From contig OZ242311.1 of assembly GCA_965207885.1 (NCBI GenBank), positions 4,192,001 through 4,256,000 of the forward strand: DNA of 64,000 nt, written 5' to 3'. Shown piece by piece: positions 5,994 through 51,681 of the stretch. Made by a program: the position numbers and the translations under genes. The notes under the pieces were generated by a model that did not search any database, was not told the origin of the DNA, and saw nothing but the letters and a program-made list of their open reading frames with translations. Position 1 is the stretch's first letter; each line of letters begins with the position of its first letter. This stretch comes from Candidatus Latescibacterota bacterium (GTDB taxonomy: Bacteria; Latescibacterota; UBA2968).

Positions 5994-7136
5994 ATGAAAA
6001 CCGAACTCACCAGACTCGATTTGGCCTGCTGGGGCGGGTTTATGATGTTTGCCACCAGCGGTGTTGTCACCCCGATATGCCTGCCCGAAATATCCAGAAC
6101 CCTGTCCATCTCCCTCTCTGAAAGCGGCGGCCTGGAAACCGCGCGAACATGTCTTTTGCTCGTCGTCTTAATCCTGTCAGGCATCCTCGCGCGCAAATGG
6201 GGCAAAAAACATTTTGTGACCTATGGGCAATATCTCCTCGCCATCGGCCTTCTCATGATCAGCTATGCCGACAGCTATCCCATGCTCATCCTGTCCCTCA
6301 TGGTCACCGGCATTGGCGGTGGATTCACCGAAGCCCTCATCAATCCCCTGATCATCGACATTCACCCCAAAGACTCGGGCAAATACCTCAACATCACCAA
6401 CGCATTTTACCCCGTCGGCGTCCTGGTCTCCGCGCTCCTCTTTGGCGAACTCTTGACCCTCGGATATTCCTGGCGGCTCGTGTTTCGCATTGCCGCAGCA
6501 GGCGCGCTTTCCATGGGCATCTTATTCCACCTATTGCGCTTTCCCATACCCGTAGCAGATCAGCAATCATCCAAACACCTGATTGCACAAATCCTCAAAA
6601 CGCCCAAATTTTGGCTCTTTGCCATCGCCATATTTTTGGGCGCAGGTATCGAAGCGGCATTCACATTCTGGAGCCGCAGCTATGTGGAAACCTACCTCCA
6701 GGACATGCCCCGCGCCGGTGCAATTGCAGTTGTCCTCTTTGCGATCACAATGGCTCTGGGCCGCTTGCTTTCCGCAAAATTGTCCCAGATGATCAGCCTG
6801 AAAACCCTGATGCTCGGTTCCGCTATCCTCGGTGTCGTCGTCAGCAGCGGTATCCCCTTCTCCGAAAATCTGATCGGATTTTACATCCTGCTCCTTTTCG
6901 CTGGATTTGCAACCGCCTGCTTCTGGCCCACCATACTCGCCGAAGCCGCAGAACACCTGTCCTTTGACACCACTCTGCTCTTTGTCGTACTCGCCTGCTT
7001 TGGCATTGCCGGATTTGGCATCATCCCCTGGATCATGGGCGTTATCGGAGACACCGCCAGCCTGAAAGCGGGTTTCTCTGTTATTCCCGGCCTCTTTATC
7101 GGCTTAATCGTTGTACTCGCCATCACGAGGCGTTAA
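5994..7136 (+). CDS. MFS transporter
   Basis: About 12 hydrophobic segments; GILARKWGKK loop motif; sugar-permease-like pattern. Confidence 0.85.
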   Translation: MKTELTRLDLACWGGFMMFATSGVVTPICLPEISRTLSISLSESGGLETARTCLLLVVLILSGILARKWGKKHFVTYGQYLLAIGLLMISYADSYPMLILSLMVTGIGGGFTEALINPLIIDIHPKDSGKYLNITNAFYPVGVLVSALLFGELLTLGYSWRLVFRIAAAGALSMGILFHLLRFPIPVADQQSSKHLIAQILKTPKFWLFAIAIFLGAGIEAAFTFWSRSYVETYLQDMPRAGAIAVVLFAITMALGRLLSAKLSQMISLKTLMLGSAILGVVVSSGIPFSENLIGFYILLLFAGFATACFWPTILAEAAEHLSFDTTLLFVVLACFGIAGFGIIPWIMGVIGDTASLKAGFSVIPGLFIGLIVVLAITRR

Positions 7137-8659
7137 TCACCTGGCGGCCAAACTGTTTTTTTCGTATATGCCTCTTTCAGATCGCGCCAATACCGTCTGC
7201 CTTTGTGAACCAGATTTGTCGGCGCAAACCGCTTGTTCAAACCCTTCTCGTGACTCGACCGCCCCGTATCGGTTCGATATTGCAACGTGAACCGCATCAA
7301 TTGTGCGAGCAAATCAAAACGCGCATCTGCATATTCTGGATCGGCCCAAACATTTTCGATCTCACCCGGATCATTGCGGTGATCGTACAACTCGCCCTCA
7401 TCCAGGCTCCCGTAAAATACCAGCCGAAAATCGCGCGTGCGAATCGCCGACACCTTGCCCCCGGGATTGCCCCAATCCCACTCGCAAAATGCCGCGTCTT
7501 TGCCATCTGCTGTACCATTTACAAAAGGAATCAAATCGCGCCCATCGCGCCCATTGGGAATGGGAATATCGCAGAGACGACACAGCGTGGGATACCAATC
7601 GACCGATTCGACAATAGCATCACATGTCGCGCTCGATGGACCACCCGGATAGCGCAAGACAAAAGGAATGCGGTGAATCGAATCGTAAATCCCAAAATTC
7701 TTGTGAAACAACCCGTGGTCACCCGCAAAATCCCCGTGATCCGCGCAATACAACACCACGGTATTTTCCAACTCCCCCACCTCGTCCAGATAATCCAGCA
7801 CCCGCCCAATCTCGGAATCAATCGCCGTAATCAGCGCGTAATAACTCGCCAAACAGCGCTTCAAGCGATCGGGATTGGGATCGGCCAATGGATACCCACA
7901 CCCATCGGCCAAGCGCTCTTGCATAAACTCGGGCTTGCCGGCAAAGCGACGCTGAAAATAATCAATCGCACTATTGGGCAACACCATCTCATCGGGATTG
8001 TACATATCAAAATGCTCTGCCGCAGGCGCAATCGGTGCGTGAGGCCTTTGAAAACTCATGTGCAAAAAAAATGGGCGCTCATCGTCTCGCTCCTTCAAAA
8101 ACGCCAGCGACTCATTGCCCGTATAATGCTCAATCGAATGCTGATATGGCAGTTTGGCCGGCGCACTGCCATCCATTGTATATTCCTGCCCGGGTCTGGC
8201 CGAGCCTTCTTCGTAAAAATTCGACAACCCCAGATCTTCCAGATACTTAAAATAGTGCGTCTCGGTTGGATCCAAATGCGTCGCATCGCACAAATCCGTA
8301 TATCTGATACGCTCAAAACCATCTTCATCCCAGCGGCGAACCATGTGCGCCTTGCCAATCACAGCCGTTTGATACCCATATCTCCGAAACTGACACGCCA
8401 GCGTATTGGGATTCGCCTCGGGAATCTCCGAATGATCATTGCCAAACATCCGATGTGTGTGACAATACTGCCCGGTCATAAAACAGATCCGAGATGGCGA
8501 ACAAATCGGATTATTGCAAAAAGCGCGTGTAAACACCACCCCCTCATCCGCAATGCGATCCATATTGGGCGTCCTGACATTTGGATGCGCTGCAAATCCT
8601 GTGCAATTGGCATTGTGCTGATCCGACATCAGCCACAAAACATTGGGTCTTCGCGCCAT
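7133..8659 (-). CDS. Formylglycine-dependent sulfatase
   Basis: RPNVLWLMSDQH, CSPSR signature, GKAH, ADHGD; AGGAG RBS supports start at 8659. Confidence 0.9.
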   Translation of the reverse strand: MARRPNVLWLMSDQHNANCTGFAAHPNVRTPNMDRIADEGVVFTRAFCNNPICSPSRICFMTGQYCHTHRMFGNDHSEIPEANPNTLACQFRRYGYQTAVIGKAHMVRRWDEDGFERIRYTDLCDATHLDPTETHYFKYLEDLGLSNFYEEGSARPGQEYTMDGSAPAKLPYQHSIEHYTGNESLAFLKERDDERPFFLHMSFQRPHAPIAPAAEHFDMYNPDEMVLPNSAIDYFQRRFAGKPEFMQERLADGCGYPLADPNPDRLKRCLASYYALITAIDSEIGRVLDYLDEVGELENTVVLYCADHGDFAGDHGLFHKNFGIYDSIHRIPFVLRYPGGPSSATCDAIVESVDWYPTLCRLCDIPIPNGRDGRDLIPFVNGTADGKDAAFCEWDWGNPGGKVSAIRTRDFRLVFYGSLDEGELYDHRNDPGEIENVWADPEYADARFDLLAQLMRFTLQYRTDTGRSSHEKGLNKRFAPTNLVHKGRRYWRDLKEAYTKKTVWPPGD

Positions 8660-48700: not shown

Positions 48701-48727
48701 AGGGTTGGGAGGCTGCATTTTTGACTC
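48701..48727 (+). repeat. Direct repeat copy 1 (duplicate of the lysS RBS/start region)
   Basis: AGGGTTGGGAGGCTGCATTTTTGACTC matches 51655-51681 at 24/27 positions. Confidence 0.85.
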
Positions 48728-48803
48728 TGGGTGCCCCATTCCCTAGTTCTTAGACAGCCGATGTGTTGGATAACTAAATTTGTACATGCTAAGGAAAAGT
48801 AAT

Positions 48804-50348
48804 ATGCTGAAAAATTTGCGAATCCAAAATTTCAAGGTTTGGGAGGATACCGGTACTATTCGCTTGGCCCCTCTTACTCTTTTATTTGGTGCCAACAGTT
48901 CCGGCAAGTCCAGTATTGGTCAGTTCCTTCTGATGTTAAAGCAGACAGTTGAGTCACGAAGTCAAGATGTGTTTTATCTTGGTGATAGCAATCCAGCAGT
49001 TCAACTGGGATCTTACGAGGACATAATCTTTCAGCGAGACAGGCAAAAACAGATTAAATTTGAATATCAATGGTCGCCCCAATCACCCATAAGACTTATA
49101 AATCCTGATCCTTATCAGATTTTTTCCGGAGACGATCTGGCCTTTCAAGCAGAAGTTGGCTCCCATAGCCTAACTCGCCGCCCCCAGGTTAAACGGTTCA
49201 ATTATAAATTGATCGCTGCGAATAGCAAAACTCAGCTTTCATTTGGAATGAAGATCCGCTCTCAAACAAGGGGTTATTATGAGCTCGAATCTCCTAACCT
49301 CACTCTCAAGAAGATATCTGGGATGGCGAATCAATCATATAGTACACTACCTCAGAATTCACCTAATCATTTTTATGGCTTTCCTCGTCAGCTAATCACG
49401 GCCTATCAAAATCAGACGATTTTTCGAGAATTCAACGATACGCATGAAGAATTTTTCAGTAATCTTTTCTATCTCGGCCCAATACGCATTGAGGCCAAAA
49501 GATTATATGAAAATGCTGGAGGAATACCAGAAAGTGTGGGATATAAAGGCGAAGATACTATCGCAGCTATTCTAGCGGCCAAAGCTAAAGATAAGATATT
49601 TGAAGAGAGGGAAGACAGGTTTGAGAATAGAATCACTAATAGGCTCAAACAGATAGGGCTGATTGAGGATTTTAAAATTACAGAACTTTCTGATCGGGTG
49701 TGTGAAATTAAAGTGCAAACTAAAGGATCAAAGACTTGGGTGGAACTTCCTGATGTCGGATTCGGTGTCTCGCAAGTGCTTCCAGTGCTCGTGCAGTGTT
49801 TTTATGTACCAGAGAAATCAATCATTTTAATAGACCAGCCAGAGGTACATCTTCATCCCTATGCACAATCGGCTTTGGCTGATGTGATGATTGATATTAT
49901 AAAAAATAGGAATATCCAGTTGGTCATTGAGACCCATTCCGAGCATTTTCTTCGGCGATTGCAAAGACGAATTGCTGAAGACAAGTTGACTCAAGACGAC
50001 GTATCAGCCTACTTCTCTAATATTAACCTGGTGCCATTGGATGAAATAGACAAAATCTCGGAAGTGAAACGAAACTCACTTAAGGAAGCAGGTATTTTGT
50101 CTGCCAATGACCTCGTCATCACACCCTTAGAGACACTACTTGAAATAGATAAAATTGGCGAAATCATAGCGAAGGAATTGTATGAAATCGCGCAAGAAAA
50201 CCTCAAGGCAAAAGGGGGGGCTAAGCTAGAGCCTCTTAATATAGACAAATTCGGCAATATACTCAACTGGCCTGAAAACTTTTTTGGCGATGAGATGGAA
50301 GACATTTTTGCACAAGCCGAGGCAGAAATAAGAAGGCAGATGGAATAA
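48804..50348 (+). CDS. ABC-type ATPase (AAA_15/AAA_21, DUF3696-like C-terminus) with inserted tandem HhH domain
   Basis: IQNFK, Walker A GANSSGKS, signature-like VGFGVSQ, Walker B ILIDQPE.HLHP, H-loop ETHSEH, terminal GNI.NWPENFF. Confidence 0.85.
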   Translation: MLKNLRIQNFKVWEDTGTIRLAPLTLLFGANSSGKSSIGQFLLMLKQTVESRSQDVFYLGDSNPAVQLGSYEDIIFQRDRQKQIKFEYQWSPQSPIRLINPDPYQIFSGDDLAFQAEVGSHSLTRRPQVKRFNYKLIAANSKTQLSFGMKIRSQTRGYYELESPNLTLKKISGMANQSYSTLPQNSPNHFYGFPRQLITAYQNQTIFREFNDTHEEFFSNLFYLGPIRIEAKRLYENAGGIPESVGYKGEDTIAAILAAKAKDKIFEEREDRFENRITNRLKQIGLIEDFKITELSDRVCEIKVQTKGSKTWVELPDVGFGVSQVLPVLVQCFYVPEKSIILIDQPEVHLHPYAQSALADVMIDIIKNRNIQLVIETHSEHFLRRLQRRIAEDKLTQDDVSAYFSNINLVPLDEIDKISEVKRNSLKEAGILSANDLVITPLETLLEIDKIGEIIAKELYEIAQENLKAKGGAKLEPLNIDKFGNILNWPENFFGDEMEDIFAQAEAEIRRQME

Positions 50349-50580
50349 GCCTTTTCTCTCGACAAAATGGACCCGTATTGATTGACATCAATCTGAAAAC
50401 AGTAAAGATTTAAGTGCACCTCCGTCATTGTTCCTCAAATTAGTCAATCGTGGCCTATTGCGGACCATATGTGGCATTAAAAACGTCCAAGATACCTGAC
50501 ATCATAGGGTATTTACCCTAAAAAAATCTTGAGGATCTGCGGCCTGATCTTACAATGACCATGCTACAGGAGCGATACAA

Positions 50581-51036
50581 ATGAGCAAATTAGTAAAAAA
50601 GATCGTTATAGACTCTAGGGTATTCAGTATCTTGGACGATAAACACGCAAGCGGGGAATGCAAATTGAAATGTCTTAAAAAACTCGAGGAAATTCTCAAG
50701 GATAATTGCTGTTTGGTGCTAGACAACAGTCTTCAAATTACACAAGAGTATAAGGCAGCTTGTGGGCACATAGGAGAAAAGCTCTTCAAAAACCTCTCTC
50801 GAAAAAAGAACTCTGTTCCTATTACAGACCATCCTTCTTACCGTCAATATGTTGAATTTCCAGATGATATAAGGCTTTTCAATTTTTTTCCCCGTCAATG
50901 TAAATTTGTTGCTGTTGCCCGTGCAACAAATGAAGCAAAACCGCTACCCATCTACACCATCTCCGGTTTGAGTAATACAACTCATACCGATATTCTGAAA
51001 ATATACTACAACATACCGATCCACATCCTATGTTGA
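50581..51036 (+). CDS. PIN-like protein, apparently lacking several catalytic acidic residues
   Basis: AGGAG RBS; VID, LVLD...I..EY, FP....L..F....KFVAVA, terminal LC pattern as recalled for partners of DUF3696 ATPases. Confidence 0.55.
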   Translation: MSKLVKKIVIDSRVFSILDDKHASGECKLKCLKKLEEILKDNCCLVLDNSLQITQEYKAACGHIGEKLFKNLSRKKNSVPITDHPSYRQYVEFPDDIRLFNFFPRQCKFVAVARATNEAKPLPIYTISGLSNTTHTDILKIYYNIPIHILC

Positions 51037-51654
51037 AATACAAGGGTGTGGATAAAATATACTAAAATTTGTATAAACATGTTTCAAGAAGCCGTTTTAA
51101 AATTCATTCTGGTATCTTTGGAAAGCGATCTGGGCTCCTACTTAAAGCAGGCAGACGTGACGAAAGAAGATGTCATTACGAATCAGTCTGTAAAATATTA
51201 GCAGATTTTTTGTAAGGACCACTCAGCGCGAACGAAAAAGTGTCGATCAATGCAGGAAAATCTATCCATATCCCAAGATATAAAGTTTGACCAACGCAGA
51301 CCAATGCTTTTGTAACTATAATTGAGGCAGCAAAAGTGATGAGAATGATTACTATTTGGGTCATCCTGTTATTTTTTATACTGTCGTTTTATATCGAGAA
51401 GAGACAAATGAAGAGATTTGACATAGCGAATTTAGCTGGCCCTGATTTTGAGAATTTATCGCTTGGCATAATAGCGGGTACAATGAAACTGAATTGAACT
51501 TGGCAACACTCGTGTAGCATTTGCATTGGTCAATTGCACGCCCGGAGAAGTAAAATCATCCGTGCTCCGAAAAAAAGAGCAAAACCACGCTTTGAAAATG
51601 GTAGTATCTATTGGGAAAGAGTAGCTTAGTTTTCATACAATGTAAATATGTTAT

Positions 51655-51681
51655 AGGGTTGGGAGGCTCCAATCTTGACTC
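51655..51681 (+). repeat. Direct repeat copy 2 (functional lysS RBS and start)
   Basis: AGGGTTGGGAGGCTCCAATCTTGACTC containing GGAGG and the TTG start at 51675. Confidence 0.85.

Follow-up and report, generated by a model that had tools for sequence, protein, structure and literature searches.

How does an ABC ATPase of an antiphage system perceive infection, and what might a piece of the host protein NusA be doing inside one of them? The question is raised by a 64,000-nt stretch of contig OZ242311.1 (GCA_965207885.1; Candidatus Latescibacterota bacterium), hereafter the window, in which all coordinates given below are positions. One gene of the window encodes an ATPase of the HEC-03 type. 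HEC-03 (Hma-embedded candidate 3) combines an ABC ATPase and a PIN protein; it protects against phages, both genes are required, the small protein is a VapC-like PIN protein, and the passages of the preprint used here give the way in which the ATPase senses infection as unknown (Payne et al., bioRxiv 10.1101/2024.01.29.577857). For ABC-ATPase defence systems at large (HEC-03, Menshen and PARIS-like pairs), infection sensing is largely open. An earlier inspection of the letters alone (the sequence-only reading) had proposed that the window ATPase bears, inserted in its tail, an additional tandem helix-hairpin-helix (HhH) domain that may serve as an integrated decoy or sensor. Judged by its homology, this segment is almost certainly the 61-residue C-terminal (HhH)2 domain of NusA, copied in frame into the ATPase. 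The donor was probably the nusA gene of the window's own genus, and the role that we tentatively place first for the domain is that of a sensor or decoy.

The window ATPase itself is intact. Its Pfam matches are AAA_15 (5.8e-29), AAA_21 (1.4e-23) and, at the C-terminus, DUF3696 (PF12476; 7.6e-07), and its Walker A motif, [DE]QPE Walker B motif and THSEHF switch are intact and typical of the family. The likely start codon is the ATG at 48804, yielding the 514-aa protein of the databases. The HEC-03 ATPase model of PADLOC (PDLC04148) matches at 1.9e-108 and the Menshen NsnB model at 1.2e-63. The match to PDLC04148 is split at the insert: residues 9-414 align with model positions 1-407, and a second stretch follows.

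The insert and its fold

The peptide quoted in the sequence-only reading lies on the + strand at 50019-50216, within a 522-aa open reading frame (ORF), and the opposite strand is interrupted by stops. Compared with the short loop of its homologues, the window ATPase has about 61 extra residues at this place. A MAFFT alignment of the best 120 homologues shows a segment of 61-66 aa between VSAYFxNI and AKLEPL in 24 of them, one of these having a partly duplicated version of 161 aa, and a 25-residue form, e.g. VSAYFANIAKTPATLEPLQIDIFGN, in the remaining 96. The family was also sampled by 149 representatives of 50%-identity clusters, none of them from the window's own clade: the site spans 24-27 residues in 146, and the other three are truncated. 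As the insert is carried by 24 of 120 close homologues and by 0 of 146 complete representatives, it is real and confined to a sub-lineage. The earlier claim of some 60 additional residues downstream of VSAYF is thus borne out by the short loop of these 96 homologues and 146 representatives, and the insert is not common to the whole family; the further expectation, that variable domains would occupy this position elsewhere in the family, failed, as none was found among these representatives. The boundaries of the insert are exact (VPL...AK), about three loop residues being replaced, and the insert-bearing protein clusters fall in two clades. Three clade-2 clusters from different sources (P0029, P0348 and P0350; ~620 aa) have partial tandem duplications, in which the first half of the insert with the preceding IAAYFA strand, plus the last helix, is repeated.

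The relation to NusA is specific. A hidden Markov model (HMM) of 23 inserts, run unfiltered over all 84,453 six-frame ORFs (at least 40 aa) of the window's genome, matches the ATPase itself and residues 363-426 of NusA (72 bits, E 2e-19), with the next ORF at E 0.064. By blastp, the insert aligns gap-free with residues 364-427 of its own NusA (31/64 identical, 48%; E 1e-12), directly after the KH2 domain of the donor protein. The similarity extends to DNA: the insert is 63% identical to the resident nusA over 183 nt, again gap-free, and includes a 27-nt run identical at 25/27 positions to the resident nusA and at 27/27 to the nusA of a congener. As a blastn query, the DNA of the islet in which the ATPase gene lies (see below) hit the 3' end of nusA in 14 of 20 congeneric genomes, over 27-87 nt and with 74-100% identity. 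The sequence-only reading had seen a two-HhH module like the acidic repeats (ARs) of NusA or the N-domain of RadA and had suggested a comparison with the C-terminus of the genome's NusA; it was correct in kind, and the comparison narrows the module to the C-terminal domain of NusA. A generic HhH origin, or one from RadA or from the C-terminal domain of the RNA polymerase alpha subunit (alphaCTD), was rejected, since in its own genome the insert profile matches only NusA, with RpoA at 10 bits; RuvA, UvrC, LigA and other HHH_5-matching ORFs are absent from the matches at E <=10 in that genome.

Wider searches agree. A profile search of 5.8 billion proteins gave, among the 120 of 138 matches listed, only NusA, ATPases of this type and one 139-aa fragment. 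This fragment (P0344, from a contig of 1265 nt) starts with some 60 residues of unrelated sequence and continues with the C-terminal domain and acidic tail of the genus's NusA; either a chimera of the assembly or another rearrangement at the 3' end of nusA could account for it. A word-indexed protein search with residues 412-483 alone returned nothing beyond the protein itself and is uninformative. Pfam matches of the insert alone stay under the gathering threshold both for PF03118 RNA_pol_A_CTD (20.6; 23.8 needed) and for PF14520 HHH_5 (19.2; 27 needed), and a precomputed PF14520 match is found in 11 of the 24 insert-bearing relatives.

The predicted structure is that of a confidently modeled domain. 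The AlphaFold2 (AF2) model of the insert, from a 43-row alignment, has a predicted local distance difference test score (pLDDT) of 91.5. In Foldseek, the top ranks go to Rad51/Dmc1 N-domains and alphaCTD (TMq 0.7-0.79, root-mean-square deviation (rmsd) 1.0-2.2 A); no match to the Protein Data Bank (PDB) reached E <=0.001 for the insert (best 1.8e-3) or for the PIN-like protein, so that the ranking and the Z scores of VIA-align were used. When VIA-align compared the insert model with 48,161 chains, the Rad51 N-domain and AF1548 both scored Z 10.8. The lambda N-bound AR1 of E. coli NusA (1u9l_B) reached Z 9.0, with 26% identity and an rmsd of 1.4 A over 61 residues, AR2 (2jzb_B) Z 8.5 with an rmsd of 2.3 A, and alphaCTD Z 8.2. 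A profile search of PDB sequences placed the insert domain on residues 373-414 of E. coli NusA, which correspond to AR1 (E 3.5e-04). By these models the insert is a five-helix (HhH)2 fold of the NusA C-terminal type, closest to AR1 in sequence register and in rmsd.

The hairpins of this fold are only partly conserved. The donor NusA domains of the genus have two G-h-G hairpins, and no insert retains the pair: hairpin 1, G-x-G in the donor, is lost in 23/23 inserts, and hairpin 2 (G-h-G) is complete in 13/23 and incomplete in 10/23, the window reading DKIGE. The net charge runs from -5 in the window to +3 across the relatives, several clade-2 inserts being basic (pI 8-9.5). Two features on which the sequence-only reading had leaned therefore hold for the window copy alone. 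The replacement of the hairpin Gly by Lys is present there and concerns only the first Gly of the second hairpin, while 13/23 relatives keep G-h-G; the acidic character is likewise true of the window copy (-5) and not of relatives, which reach +3.

An (HhH)2 domain could bind the backbone of DNA or RNA non-specifically, as the N-domains of Rad51 and RadA, RuvA and alphaCTD do, and the ATPase would then sense phage nucleic acid. Some (HhH)2 domains that bind DNA are indeed among the best fold matches (Rad51 N-domain, Z 10.8; alphaCTD, Z 8.2), and both the 13 canonical second hairpins and the basic clade-2 inserts are in line with this idea. We nevertheless hold it to be quite improbable: the universal loss of hairpin 1, the ten incomplete second hairpins and the charge of -5 in the window speak against it, as does the donor, a type of domain described in the consulted parts of PMC7171158 solely as a protein-docking module.

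Source and spread of the insert

The domain is abundant in NusA and rare in the ATPase. Of 168 genomes of the phylum scanned with the profile, 80 contain it. Within the window's genus, NusA carries it in each of the 21 genomes; five of them, the window's included, have a second copy in the ATPase. The ATPase-borne insert occurs in 6/168 genomes, five of them in that one genus. The sixth belongs to another family (G139/L019; 1 match in 76) and has the domain in the ATPase only; its own NusA C-terminus is without detectable similarity to its insert, which is 41% identical to the window NusA (E 7e-11). The sequence-only reading had taken the insert for a mimic of a host protein. As regards descent from the nusA of the host lineage this probably stands; in G139/L019, where the NusA C-terminus is unlike the insert, it does not.

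Four kinds of evidence favour a donor in or beside the window's genus. A maximum-likelihood protein tree (69 sequences) unites the 23 inserts in a single clade (100/100) and joins this clade to the NusA domains of the genus (99/96). In a DNA tree of 55 sequences, the inserts are sister to the NusA clade of the genus (98/94). Clade-1 inserts are 48% identical to the NusA of the genus and 37-39% to that of neighbouring families. The synonymous difference (pS) is 0.57 between clade-1 inserts and genus NusA, and lies on a plateau of 0.76-0.80 against all other groups. Two approximately unbiased (AU) tests weigh on the other side. With proteins, a tree that places the inserts outside the genus and the neighbouring families is 4.65 log-likelihood units better than the free search (p 0.68); with DNA, the same alternative is 13 units worse, at a borderline p of 0.061. 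As the AU tests leave some room for an older origin, we call a donor from the window's own genus favoured and not shown, and consider it probable from the trees and identities. A position of the inserts nested inside the genus, as drawn in a first protein tree, is weakened by the AU result (p 0.68) and by the sister position in the DNA tree.

The history of the ATPase is compatible with a single gain. A tree calculated without the insert columns has a 30-sequence clade with 100% support, resolved as a trichotomy of six insert-free proteins, clade 1 (nine) and clade 2 (15). An allele free of the insert is found in a congener, L092, whose orthologous ATPase occupies the same chromosomal locus as those of three carriers. 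Positions 7063-7188 and 7381-7509 of the carrier L016 match L092 at 87% and 82%, and the intervening 192 nt, the insert, correspond to about 10 nt in L092. The two alleles (L092:5971-7509 and L016:6001-7530) are otherwise mosaic, with flanks and first 235 nt 92% identical, the middle 69% and the tail 82-87%; at the protein level, the ligases encoded downstream of them share 95% identity. In L092 the PIN gene is cut, and MIDVI is followed by a separate insertion of 26 aa.

What the insert may do

The insert lies between the last core strand of the ATPase (VSAYF) and the DUF3696 tail, and this position can be read with the help of two precedents. The AR domains of NusA are protein-docking platforms, AR1 for lambda N and AR2 for lambda Q, alphaCTD, NusG and SuhB (PMC7171158). 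AlphaFold3 (AF3) models of Menshen place the PIN-like (inPIN) N-domain of NsnC on the DUF3696 tails of NsnB dimers (PMC12065111), and by analogy we infer that the tail of the window ATPase is an effector dock. As the NsnB tail docks NsnC in those models, the NusA-derived domain would lie right at the junction of the ATPase core and the putative effector dock. A protein-binding sensor or decoy of the ATPase is what this arrangement tentatively suggests for the domain. It would give the ATPase a NusA-like protein-binding surface, and proteins that dock on the C-terminal domain of NusA (in E. coli, lambda N on AR1 and lambda Q on AR2) would also bind the ATPase. Binding beside the DUF3696 tail would be relayed to the ATPase and the tail, and the PIN RNase would be released or activated, with an abortive or growth-arrest response as outcome. 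The RNA ligase of the operon could reverse the damage. We rank the sensor or decoy first because AR domains dock phage antiterminators, in E. coli (PMC7171158), and because the DNA-type hairpins are unconserved, the position suits signal transfer and the domain is constrained yet fast-evolving.

In 79 related loci from many phyla, a 176-aa protein follows the ATPase in 76 and an RNA ligase (PF09414, 1e-23 to 1e-32) in 69, the canonical gene order being ATPase, PIN RNase, RNA ligase. The ligase gene is exemplified by L016:8030-8773 and L019:8156-8893, with 67 further loci (L015-L093). In relatives, the 176-aa protein matches the small HEC-03 model of PADLOC at about 1e-27. The AF2 model of the canonical small protein (pLDDT 94.7) has VapC-type PIN toxins as its top Foldseek matches (probability 0.8-0.97, E 0.04-0.3). 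The pairing of a PIN RNase with an RNA ligase in one operon hints at RNA damage that can be reversed.

The insert evolves faster than its surroundings and, in most carriers, under constraint. In 34/36 pairs within clade 1, 82/91 within clade 2 and 126/126 between the clades, the inserts share a lower identity than the remaining protein does. Between the window and P0003, its closest relative, identity drops from 90% elsewhere (449 columns) to 60% in the insert (65 columns); P0003 enters as protein only, DNA being available for six copies of the insert. The ratio of nonsynonymous (dN) to synonymous (dS) divergence, omega, is 0.30-0.39 for the insert among the four carriers other than the window, and 0.08-0.44 for the C-terminal rest. 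Between inserts and genus NusA, dN is 0.25-0.42 at dS 0.6-1.0, and pairs of NusA have omega 0.09-0.29. The ATPases of the two insert-bearing clades are only 61% identical, and intact operons occur in both. Substitution rates and the structural model together indicate that the insert is kept as a folded unit and constrained in the carriers other than the window.

A number of observations weigh against a sensor or decoy. The site is no hot spot for varied domains: with the short loop in 146/149 representatives, the diversity typical of the integrated decoys of plant NLRs (nucleotide-binding leucine-rich repeat receptors) is absent. In G139/L019 the domain cannot mimic the resident NusA, since the C-terminus of that NusA is unlike the insert. 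The acidic charge and the lost hairpin Gly hold for the window copy only, contrary to what a decoy would lead one to expect. Inserts are 34-48% identical to the NusA domains of the genus, which average 84% among themselves, so that they may no longer mimic the surface of NusA. Nor is the insert uniquely fast, because residues 70-210 of the ATPase are equally variable. In all pairs with the window, omega is 0.72-1.21 for the insert and 0.17-0.29 for the C-terminal rest, values which come, as all the omegas here, from a simple NG86 count on about 60 codons. The window PIN-like ORF keeps D10, D53 and E61 and is without the nearly invariant TN, GxPGxG, FDxSD, QAxD and KW; tblastn with three ligases found no remnant of an RNA ligase in the window (best E 0.056-0.18). 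With omega at this level, PIN residues lost and the ligase absent, relaxation fits as well as an arms race.

The PIN-like ORF of the window's cassette matches PDLC04147 weakly (1.3e-05) and is 30% identical to the canonical partners, which are 55-91% identical to each other. A gap of 232 nt separates ATPase and PIN genes, which abut in L016, L017 and L019, and the stretch at 51037..51654 has only ORFs of at most 62 aa. The degenerate PIN, the missing ligase, the gap and an insert omega near 1 suggest that the window cassette is probably decaying or re-purposed. In one other carrier (L018:6001-6866) the ATPase gene is truncated at its 5' end (218-aa frame), the PIN gene is reduced to 71 aa and the ligase is missing, so decay is not limited to the window.

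Here another account has to be weighed: an in-frame illegitimate recombination with nusA may have put a stable domain into a tolerant surface loop, where it senses nothing. It would have been kept because it folds harmlessly or only adjusts the geometry of the DUF3696 tail, and in the window it would drift along with a dying system. The single origin and narrow distribution (6/168 genomes, five in one genus) are in line with this, as are the lack of any other domain at the site in the family, the insert omega near 1 in the window lineage, the degenerate PIN and lost ligase of the window with the truncated ATPase and PIN of L018, and the partial tandem duplications in three clusters. A mere passenger would not be expected, however, to be retained with intact operons in two clades whose ATPases have diverged to 61% identity, nor to show the sequence constraint of omega 0.30-0.39 among the other carriers, nor to have been captured with exact domain boundaries (VPL...AK) at the cost of about three loop residues. 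On balance we consider this account unlikely.

As a further possibility, the domain may have kept a host partner of the NusA C-terminal domain, RNA polymerase or an elongation factor, and so place the ATPase and its PIN protein on transcription complexes. The RNase would then act on nascent (phage) transcripts, or the ATPase would monitor transcription. E. coli AR2 docks alphaCTD, the N-terminal domain of NusG and SuhB (PMC7171158); the domain is a folded unit under purifying selection in most carriers; and a PIN RNase-type effector with an RNA ligase in the operon fits action at the level of RNA. The domain, however, aligns with AR1 (373-414; rmsd 1.4 A) and less well with AR2 (2.3 A), and the consulted parts of PMC7171158 name no known host partner of AR1. 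The insert has diverged three- to five-fold faster than the domain in NusA itself, which is unexpected if it binds a conserved host protein, and the carrier in another family has an unlike NusA. We give such a tether about the same low likelihood as the passenger. A complex prediction of the insert with its own RNA polymerase alphaCTD, made without controls, scored 0.10 against a mark of 0.32 and is uninformative either way.

If the domain is a sensor or decoy, a bolder statement can be framed, which we regard as doubtful: that this is the first prokaryotic immune protein with an integrated decoy traceable to its donor gene, one that would catch phage proteins of antitermination or transcription takeover and couple an attack on the elongation machinery to the release of a PIN RNase whose damage is repairable by a ligase.

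The islet and its relation to known systems

The cassette forms an islet between prfB and lysS (Table 1) with a G+C content (GC) of 0.36-0.43, against about 0.50 in the flanks, and no genes other than those of the ATPase and the PIN-like protein lie in it. Of the 20 other genomes of the genus, 17 have an empty site with prfB next to lysS, and in 15 of these 17 the blastn matches of the two genes overlap by ~26-32 nt at the repeat sequence. Of the other three congeners, one has 1.5 kb of other DNA at the site, one has the two genes apart, and in one contig ends cut the locus. The 1.5 kb in the first of these (G092) includes 238 nt (76% identical) in common with the right end of the islet; as this DNA partly matches the islet, the prfB-lysS site may be a recurrent integration spot.

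Table 1. Features of the ATPase gene and of the islet that contains it (positions in the window)
Feature	Position	Strand	Basis
27-nt imperfect direct repeat at the islet border, left copy	48701..48727	.	24/27 identical to 51655-51681
Low-GC defence islet, 2.9 kb, between prfB and lysS	48728..51654	.	GC, comparison with sister genomes
HEC-03-type ABC ATPase (AAA_15/AAA_21 + DUF3696)	48780..50348	+	Pfam, PADLOC, motifs; 522-aa ORF
Insert, captured NusA C-terminal (HhH)2 domain (VPLDEID...KAKGGA)	50031..50222	+	NusA homology, AF2, VIA
DUF3696 tail (KLEPLNIDKFGNILNWPENFFGDEM...)	50223..50345	+	PF12476 at residues 480-510; effector-docking element by analogy
Diverged homologue of the HEC-03 PIN-like partner, probably inactive	50581..51036	+	PDLC04147 1.3e-05, 30% identity
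Low-GC stretch at the place of the RNA ligase gene of canonical operons	51037..51654	.	no ligase detectable
Right copy of the 27-nt direct repeat, overlapping the lysS start	51655..51681	.	24/27 identical to left copy

HEC-03 is the nearest known system. The window ATPase matches its model at 1.9e-108 and the neighbouring ORF, weakly, its small-protein model (1.3e-05), and the canonical small protein of the relatives folds like VapC PIN toxins, in agreement with the preprint. In PADLOC-DB 2.0.0 the ATPase (PDLC04148) is HEC-03B and the PIN protein (PDLC04147) HEC-03A, the letters being reversed in the preprint. The locus differs from HEC-03 in the NusA-derived insert, absent from the PADLOC model, in the degenerate PIN partner of the window, and in the RNA ligase gene, which 69 of the 79 related loci carry and for which the preprint's main text has 0 mentions (bioRxiv 10.1101/2024.01.29.577857). 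Menshen shares the architecture of ABC ATPase and DUF3696 through NsnB (1.2e-63). It differs in its NsnA (ParB-DUF262) sensor gene, of which the window islet has none, and in its effector, since the partner here is a stand-alone PIN-like protein without a C-terminal nuclease. Sensor domains are integrated into NsnA in Menshen, whereas here the domain is in the ATPase itself, and 'NusA' occurs 0 times in the Menshen paper (PMC12065111).

The AR domains of E. coli NusA, AR1 (1U9L with lambda N, 1WCL) and AR2 (2JZB with alphaCTD), have the same fold as the insert; unlike them, the insert is a single copy transplanted into an ATPase, with hairpin 1 lost. NusA-like modules have been met in conflict systems before: S1 and KH modules occur in vWA-MoxR systems, where they were taken as a pointer to transcription elongation (Kaur et al. 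2020, PMC7159879). The likeness lies in the fusion of NusA-related domains to components of prokaryotic conflict systems. There, however, RNA-binding S1/KH domains stand in the effector position, and here a C-terminal docking (HhH)2 domain stands inside an ABC ATPase. In the literature searched, a NusA C-terminal domain is nowhere reported from a defence protein, these S1/KH modules (PMC7159879) being the nearest. Two congeners of the window have another protein built of transcription-machinery domains, of 783 aa (L182:2073-4424, genome G096) and 689 aa (L183:1217-3286, genome G086), with 3-4 tandem alphaCTD-like domains and a sigma-70 region 4; each gene adjoins a GNAT acetyltransferase gene.

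What the locus offers is an identifiable candidate for a sensor in a class of systems in which sensing is largely open: a module of 61 residues, with its donor gene, its insertion point and an insert-free sister allele in hand. The finding also points to the C-terminal domain of NusA as a possible target of phages beyond the gamma-proteobacteria, in a phylum represented here by metagenome-assembled genomes alone.

Plant NLRs provide the model for integrated decoys, of which the WRKY domain of RRS1 is an example. With these receptors, and with the idea put forward for bNACHT11, the window ATPase would share the presence, within an immune protein, of a domain that stems from a host protein whose pathway is a known target of pathogens. 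It differs from plant NLRs in that there is no variety of domains at the site. The authors of the bNACHT11 study hypothesise mimicry of an unidentified host partner, and the parts of their paper used here name no donor (PMC11702601); for the window insert, in contrast, the donor gene is identified. To the extent that the sensor or decoy holds, the ATPase would be a concrete bacterial case for the integrated-decoy idea, so far only hypothesised for bNACHT11.

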